This document shows positions 9,945 to 10,400 of a stretch of 64,000 nucleotides of DNA, piece after piece (the stretch's first letter is position 1; every line of letters starts with the position of its first letter). The notes under the pieces were generated by a model. It saw only the letters and a list, made by a program, of their open reading frames with translations. It was not told the DNA's origin and ran no database searches. Source of the DNA: Escherichia phage vB_EcoM_SQ17; the sequence record MW882907; one strand, written 5' to 3'. The position numbers were made by a program, and so were the translations under genes.

Positions 9945-10400
9945 TTATTTTAGATCTTCGGCCCAATCTAGTTTTAAGGGTTCTTTGTATTCACGGTCGA
10001 GAATAACCGGAATAGCTACATCACCACTGAATGATAGTTGGCCAACGTTATATGATAACGTTATATGTGGAGTGTAGTCGTCGAAATCATGAGTAGCACC
10101 TAAAGCTCGTGCGTACTGATGACGGCATCTAAGATATTCGGAATCAAGAACTAAAACCAGTACAGCGCCGTCGTCAGTTTTCCATACCTCAAGGTGTCCT
10201 GATTCGGCAACAGAATAACTACCACTAGATGTAGTATATGGTATGTTTACACGTGAATAACAAATTGTTGAATGAAGCTTTTCACGTGGTACTGGATTAG
10301 GAATTCTTAATTTGCGCTGGAGGTCTTCCAGCGCATCAAGTGTTAATTCCGAAAATTTAGCTGCGACGTAGAGGCCTTGTGAAAAGTCCTCAAATTTCAT
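9945..10400 (-). CDS. acb1: 2H phosphoesterase, gene 57B (Acb1 anti-CBASS nuclease family)
   Basis: Two H-x-T/S-x motifs (HSTI, HITL) typical of 2H phosphoesterases; position between ipI locus and 57A as T4 57B. Confidence 0.7.

Follow-up and report, generated by a model that had tools for sequence, protein, structure and literature searches.

Acb1, the product of gene 57B in phage T4, is an anti-CBASS enzyme whose structure is known from the homolog of Erwinia phage FBB1, solved in the apo form (7T26) and in complex with 3'3'-cGAMP (7T27) (PMC9117128). In T4 numbering, the active site is formed by the tetrad H44/T46/H113/T115, the bases of the ligand are stacked by Y12, W74, F107 and W147, E141 contacts the adenine N6, and residues 145-152 make up a C-terminal lid (PMC9117128), the function of which is set out both in that work and in bioRxiv 10.1101/2025.08.21.671373. 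T4 Acb1 and nine further cloned homologs all cleaved 3'3'-cGAMP and cAAA; the signals that escape Acb1 are cGG, which has no adenosine, 3'2'-cGAMP, which has a 2'-5' bond, and cA4, which has more than three bases (PMC9117128). T4 lacking acb1 suffers a >300-fold loss on CBASS hosts (PMC9117128), and transposon sequencing also supports the in vivo anti-CBASS role of T4 acb1.

The same enzyme can be turned against the phage. T4 Acb1 digests 2'3'- and 3'3'-c-di-AMP, and its removal of 2'3'-c-di-AMP lets the Panoptes system detect it; the Mosigvirus MM02, which carries Acb1 (MM02 gp156), is reported to be Panoptes-sensitive (PMC12657230). Product profiles differ even within the structural group to which T4 Acb1 belongs (Doherty et al. 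2025 preprint). Here we describe the 57B gene of Escherichia phage vB_EcoM_SQ17 and compare it and its surroundings with these systems.

Identification of the 57B gene

The window analyzed is a stretch of 64,000 nucleotides from phage SQ17 (sequence record MW882907). A minus-strand open reading frame at 9945-10400 encodes 151 amino acids, with its ATG at 10398-10400 and its stop codon at 9945-9947, and contains two candidate catalytic motifs:

9945..10400, minus strand: 57B (acb1) coding sequence, including the stop codon (open reading frame list, PF23474, identity to T4 and RB69)
10263..10274, minus strand: first catalytic motif, H43-S-T45-I, equivalent to T4 H44/T46 (regular expression; codons CAT TCA ACA ATT)
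10056..10067, minus strand: second catalytic motif, H112-I-T114-L, equivalent to T4 H113/T115 (regular expression; codons CAT ATA ACG TTA)

A regular-expression search of the translation for H-x-[TS]-x returned exactly two occurrences, one reading HSTI from residue 43 and the other HITL from residue 112, and the 2H superfamily signature of two H-x-T/S-x motifs, each with hydrophobic flanks and ~70 residues apart, is present. By itself this motif pair is weak evidence for a 2H or Acb1 identity. When the window's own open reading frames of at least 100 amino acids were used to estimate chance occurrence, at least two H-x-[TS] motifs were found in ~3% of 151-residue segments, and a stricter pattern demanding hydrophobic context was found in 0.4%. 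Because a motif pair arises by chance in ~3% of segments, the decisive evidence for Acb1 is homology over the full length of the protein.

This homology is extensive. The Pfam Acb1 profile PF23474, which has a curated gathering score of 27 bits, matched 57B at 198.1 bits (E 7.4e-59), with residues 8-149 aligned to profile positions 1-144 of 144, and the best match among solved structures was PDB 7T26/7T27 (E 3.5e-59, residues 9-148). A scan of the protein against NCBIfam release 20 returned no family, and that release has no model for 57B. T4 gp57B, that is Acb1 (NP_049750.1), aligns without gaps at 130/151 identities (86%, E 4e-103); relative to it, the SQ17 protein lacks one N-terminal residue and differs by 21 substitutions, all of them outside the residues named as functional. 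The gp57B protein of RB69 (NP_861847.1), the type species of Mosigvirus, is 100% identical, and the two genes differ by three nucleotides, all synonymous. Nucleotide searches with the gene matched 154 phage records, almost all of them from RB69-group (Mosigvirus) phages of Escherichia and Shigella, and 154/154 cover at least 80% of 57B, while tblastn found a homolog in 1470 phage records. On these counts, the gene is strongly conserved.

Public records mostly describe the gene in other terms. It is widely labeled "RNA ligase" or "hypothetical protein" (RefSeq NC_004928, NC_000866; PHROG 755), and among the records listed, "anti-CBASS protein Acb1" appears only in PQ871103, with "phosphodiesterase" and "putative RNA 2',3'-cyclic phosphodiesterase" used in one record each. 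Taken at face value, the commonest label would make 57B a LigT-like enzyme of RNA ends, either a 2'-5' RNA ligase or a 2',3'-cyclic phosphodiesterase, serving for instance tRNA repair. PHROG 755 and the RefSeq entries for both RB69 and T4 57B agree on "RNA ligase", 57B shares the two H-x-T/S-x motifs, the 2H superfamily and the 2H fold with the LigT/2'-5' RNA ligase enzymes (PF13563), and it gives a weak match to the Pfam family 2_5_RNA_ligase2 (E 0.026). That match, however, reaches 15 bits, below the cut-off of 27, and is confined to residues 76-131, compared with 198 bits for Acb1, and the residues that stack on both bases of a cyclic dinucleotide are all kept in 57B, as is the lid. The label itself is an inherited superfamily name with no assay behind it. 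T4 57B has been shown to degrade cyclic oligonucleotides, an activity that its deletion abolishes (PMC9117128), and a primary role on RNA ends is highly improbable. Membership of 57B in the LigT family (PF13563) was rejected on the sub-threshold match together with the T4 biochemistry.

Weighing this evidence, we consider 57B of SQ17 very probably the Mosigvirus (RB69-type) ortholog of T4 gene 57B, i.e. Acb1, and would expect it to behave as the T4 enzyme does, because of the 86% identity and the full conservation of the named residues. The protein is an already-known Acb1 ortholog. Its family was described in 2022, including structure, mechanism and phenotype, and the identical protein is present in the RB69 reference genome, so it carries little weight as a discovery; the name anti-CBASS nuclease Acb1 is nevertheless worth propagating into public annotations.

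An earlier note on this DNA, made from the letters alone, had arrived at the same identity, and its main readings are borne out. It had called two H-x-T/S-x motifs (HSTI, HITL), which are exactly the two found by regular expression, beginning at H43 and H112; it had placed the gene at the "57B position", and the gene does lie directly downstream of 57A and gene 1 in the order seen in T4 and RB69; and it had assigned the product to the Acb1 family of 2H phosphoesterases as the ortholog of T4 57B, in agreement with an end-to-end PF23474 match and 86% identity to T4. It had also pointed to an alignment with T4 Acb1 as the place where loss of a catalytic histidine would be seen, and neither is lost, H43 and H112 aligning with T4 H44 and H113.

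Catalytic residues, ligand contacts and lid

In a pairwise alignment with T4 Acb1, residue numbers of the SQ17 protein equal T4 numbers minus 1. The catalytic tetrad is kept as H43, T45, H112 and T114, and all five named ligand-contact residues are kept as Y11, W73, F106, W146 and E140. We also aligned nine Straboviridae proteins, the homologs being 26-86% identical to the SQ17 protein (SQ17, T4, FBB1, Acinetobacter phage Acj9, an Aeromonas phage, an RB49-like phage, Vibrio phage D490, Klebsiella phage KP27 and Vibrio phage vB_VmeM-32), and in this set H43, T45, H112, T114 and Y11 are invariant. The T4 alignment also located the lid:

9948..9971, minus strand: C-terminal lid LDWAEDLK (residues 144-151), which contains the stacking residue W146 (T4 alignment)

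This segment is 7/8 identical to T4 residues 145-152 (LDWADDLK) and forms the extreme C-terminus. T4 Acb1 and the SQ17 protein do not differ at the catalytic tetrad or at the stacking and adenine-contact positions, and their lids are nearly identical. The 2H fold, the HxT/HxT tetrad and the lid are known from the crystal structure of FBB1 Acb1, and we infer all three for the SQ17 protein; the FBB1 enzyme is 64% identical over the crystallized range (E 3.5e-59), comes from a phage of a different host genus, and has Tyr at the position of F106. A single-sequence AlphaFold2 run on the 151-residue protein gave an unusable model (mean pLDDT 40.9, pTM 0.31). The 2H fold is predicted from the 64% identity to the solved chain 7T26_A (E 3.5e-59, residues 9-148), and, judged from this likeness, a fold other than that of a compact 2H phosphoesterase would be very unlikely.

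Conserved residues also bear on the idea that 57B has decayed or lost its activity and persists only through its coupling to 57A. Natural loss-of-function alleles of acb1 do occur in some T4-like phages, for example a nonsense mutation in Bas43 (PMC12657230). The SQ17 frame, by comparison, is intact and full length with every catalytic and ligand-contact residue present, and its three differences from RB69 are all synonymous, consistent with purifying selection. We give this idea almost no credence and regard 57B as very probably encoding a functional Acb1.

Lid architecture differs elsewhere in the superfamily. The 57B homolog of KP27 has 207 residues, with an Acb1-like core and both His motifs followed by a ~55-residue C-terminal extension that is absent from T4-type proteins, in which the lid should be the extreme C-terminus; this extension might alter lid function. 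The protein 2H PDE-9, deposited as "Anti-CBASS protein Acb1" (9Q2G/9Q2Y; Doherty et al. 2025 preprint), belongs to the same superfamily and structural group as T4 Acb1, and both of its His motifs align with those of the SQ17 protein, but the sequence relationship is marginal (E 0.002) and its lid is N-terminal, unlike the T4-type C-terminal lid of SQ17 57B. A figure legend of that preprint states that 2H PDE-9 avoids 2'3'-c-di-AMP and hence does not activate Panoptes (Doherty et al. 2025 preprint).

Predicted activity and substrate range

The chemistry, substrate range, middle/late timing and anti-CBASS phenotype of 57B are drawn from work on the T4 and FBB1 enzymes. By analogy with these, 57B would act as a compact, metal-independent 2H phosphodiesterase with a U-shaped pocket shut by the C-terminal lid. 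A cyclic di- or trinucleotide would be clamped beneath the lid between aromatic residues, with an adenosine rotated such that its 2'-OH could attack the adjacent 3'-5' phosphodiester. Cleavage is predicted at the 3'-5' bond 3' of the adenosine and would pass through a 2',3'-cyclic phosphate intermediate, with the two His/Thr pairs presumably providing acid-base catalysis and a linear product such as GpAp expected. In this way 3'3'-cGAMP, cUA, cAAA and cAAG could be destroyed before CBASS effectors are activated.

The 21 substitutions relative to T4 could make quantitative substrate preferences differ, and searching the literature for Acb1 in combination with RB69 turned up no assay of an RB69-type protein. 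A specific version of this idea is that the RB69-type enzyme is "stealthier", its substitutions having shifted the substrate or product spectrum, for example toward less cleavage of 2'3'-c-di-AMP while cleavage of 3'3'-cGAMP is kept. Nothing in the sequence points to such a change, the lid and all named contact residues being T4-like, the Acb1-bearing Mosigvirus MM02 is reported to be sensitive to Panoptes, and we judge the idea very unlikely.

A different question is which immune pathway maintains the gene. The broad substrate range of T4 Acb1, including its activity on 2'3'- and 3'3'-c-di-AMP (PMC12657230), and the report that its structural group is broad-spectrum, covering messengers of CD-NTase, housekeeping and type III CRISPR origin (Doherty et al. 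2025 preprint), would allow the main selective role to lie against other cyclic-oligoadenylate pathways, such as type III CRISPR (cA3) or c-di-AMP pools, and not against CBASS. Against this, the sole in vivo phenotype shown for acb1 is against CBASS, and cleavage of 2'3'-c-di-AMP is a liability that triggers Panoptes and brings no benefit. All close relatives infect E. coli or Shigella, hosts in which type III CRISPR is rare. Selection mainly by these other pathways is very unlikely, and an anti-CBASS role remains our preferred reading.

Carriage of Acb1 predicts that SQ17 should resist CBASS systems that use adenosine-containing signals and should be sensitive to decoy-signal systems such as Panoptes, which fires upon removal of 2'3'-c-di-AMP. 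Both predictions are relevant to the choice of therapy phages against strains with known defense repertoires.

Gene order and relationship to RB69

The gene stands at the end of a co-directional string of genes 3, 1, 57A and 57B:

11423-12013, co-directional with genes 1, 57A and 57B: gene 3
10635..11369, minus strand: gene 1, dNMP kinase, upstream member of the co-directional string (Pfam DNMK, E 3.3e-97)
10400..10630, minus strand: gene 57A, tail-fiber chaperone (Pfam GP57, E 5.9e-23)

The TAA stop codon of 57A and the ATG of 57B overlap by one base (TAATG; junction AAGAAGAATAATGAAATTTG), compared with a 4-nt overlap in T4. This arrangement suggests that 57A and 57B are co-transcribed and translationally coupled, and 57B is probably transcribed together with gene 1 as well as 57A. 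The order 3-1-57A-57B is common to T4, RB69, Acj9, an Aeromonas phage, Vibrio phage D490, KP27 and an RB49-like phage, and in T4, too, 57B comes after 3-1-57A and is followed by a leader-bearing internal protein gene. A slot downstream of 3-1-57A is typical of Straboviridae Acb1 without strictly defining it: in Vibrio phage vB_VmeM-32, the one exception seen, the 57B homolog does not adjoin 57A or gene 1 and lies with nrdA on one side and a GIY-YIG homing-endonuclease-like gene on the other.

The flanks containing genes 57A, 1, 3, 2 and 4 are collinear with RB69 at 95.5% nucleotide identity. In contrast, the cassette at ~9166-9830, directly downstream of 57B, has no megablast-level match to RB69, and farther downstream the window is without ~5.2 kb that is present in RB69, including both RB69 tRNA genes. 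Given these differences, SQ17 is related to RB69 but is not RB69 itself, and its e-tRNA region is the shorter of the two. The segment corresponds to RB69 69.8-75.0 kb (absent at window ~7752-7767) and holds ORF138c-139c, e.3-e.8, frd.3 and several hypothetical genes, with the tRNA genes being Arg-UCU and Met-CAU; ARAGORN found no tRNA genes in window 1-14000. Window 1-2320 likewise has no match to RB69 64.0-77.7 kb.

Expression timing

Activity of T4 Acb1 appears ~15 min into infection (PMC9117128), 57B/acb1 has been reported as predominantly middle/late (bioRxiv 10.64898/2026.03.30.715471), and the smaller effect of acb1 on Panoptes was put down to "later gene expression" (PMC12657230). The window holds two promoter-like elements upstream of the gene:

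10985..10992, minus strand: TATAAATA, a T4-type consensus box for late promoters, within gene 1 and ~355 nt ahead of 57A (exact match)
11397..11420, minus strand: possible middle-type promoter, GCTTC box with a 13-nt spacer and TATAAT, upstream of gene 1 (sequence read)

The TATAAATA box is the only consensus late-promoter box near 57B, and it lies upstream on the coding strand. The same box in the same sequence context is found in gene 1 of T4 and RB69, but this conservation is no proof of promoter function because the box encodes a conserved I-N-N-I. We treat it as a candidate late promoter for 57A-57B. Upstream of gene 1, where T4 has a full MotA-box promoter pattern, the window has only the degenerate GCTTC-N13-TATAAT, which offers a weak hint of a middle-type promoter; a pattern search of the window found no full MotA-box middle promoter near 57B. 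The assignment of 57B to an "early region" in the earlier note is not supported by the timing described for 57B/acb1 in the three studies above, nor by the candidate late box upstream.

Across the whole window, TATAAATA occurs 18 times compared with 8.0 +/- 3.1 expected, a count that no shuffle reached, and most copies are on the plus strand at 34-56 kb, where they would fit late promoters.

The element between 57B and the internal protein genes

Immediately downstream of 57B, the DNA contains a promoter-like element directed into the next genes:

9895..9931, minus strand: intergenic element with a sigma-70-like promoter, TTTACA-17-TACTAT (9903-9931) with TG upstream of the -10, leading into the internal-protein genes (promoter scan)

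A hairpin at 9895-9926 overlaps this promoter; RNA folding gave -19.9 kcal/mol with a z-score of -4.3, and 0/200 shuffles were as stable. The hairpin has no U-tract, and a terminator scan found no intrinsic terminator between 57B and the internal-protein genes. T4 has both hexamers at the same spacing and differs from the window at several bases of the stem region (window AGGATGATGG..., T4 TGATGAGGTA...), yet by eye the T4 version of the stem folds too, and the differences look like compensatory change. The element may be an RNA 3'-end or processing hairpin located on the same DNA as an early promoter.

Neighboring internal head protein genes

Two internal head protein genes follow:

9594..9866, minus strand: internal head protein gene, 90 amino acids from leader MKTFKEFINEAA (PHROG 7673, E 4e-54)
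9225..9533, minus strand: internal head protein gene, 102 amino acids, leader MKTFKEFICEAA (PHROG 2667, E 2.5e-40)

The first of these can be read as a longer open reading frame (9594-9920), within which PHROG 7673, "internal head protein", matches residues 19-108. Its true start is probably the methionine of MKTFKEF at 9866, which would make the frame to 9920 over-extended. The 108-residue version is the one annotated in RB69 (RB69p156); its start codon lies 18 codons before the conserved leader, and its frame crosses the hairpin/promoter element.

Where T4 has one internal protein gene (ipI) after 57B, the window has two unrelated ones. Both carry an N-terminal capsid-targeting leader that fits MKT(F/Y)xEF.. 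and ends in Glu, and their mature domains are unrelated; the two proteins are alike only in a ~12-residue leader (MKTFKEFI.EAA), and share only MKTFKEF with T4 IPI. BLASTP detected no mature-domain homology to T4 IPI, aligning only the first 9-32 residues (E 0.002-0.004). The cassette at 9160-9945 is also variable, at least 80% of it being covered in only 49/661 matching phage records, with the two leader regions as its widely conserved parts.

The adjacency of Acb1 and ipI in T4 was pointed out earlier by Hobbs et al. 2022 (PMC9117128), and T4 IPI inhibits GmrS/GmrD (PMC9117128). This inhibitor function is not transferable to the two SQ17 neighbors, because their likeness to T4 IPI is restricted to the leader. 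The proposal in the earlier note that anti-defense functions cluster around 57B is therefore upheld as far as the variable leader-bearing cassettes do adjoin the gene, while an anti-defense role of the neighbors goes beyond a leader-only likeness to IPI.

The other anti-CBASS gene known from T4 is acb2 (vs.4), which encodes a sponge. A tblastn search of the window for it gave no match better than E 0.9, and so no clustering of acb1 with acb2 is seen in the window. In T4, vs.4 lies ~11 kb beyond 57B, and acb2 of SQ17 may lie just outside the window.

A second group of leader-bearing internal-protein genes, four in number, is present on the minus strand at window 1403-3433, which brings the leader-bearing cassettes in the window to six altogether:

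1403-1732, minus strand: leader-bearing gene, MKTYQEFITE
1771-2349, minus strand: leader-bearing gene, MKTYKEFIAE
2413-2673, minus strand: leader-bearing gene, MKMYQEFIIE
3152-3433, minus strand: leader-bearing gene

By collinearity with RB69, these genes flank denV and e, like ipII and ipIII in T4.
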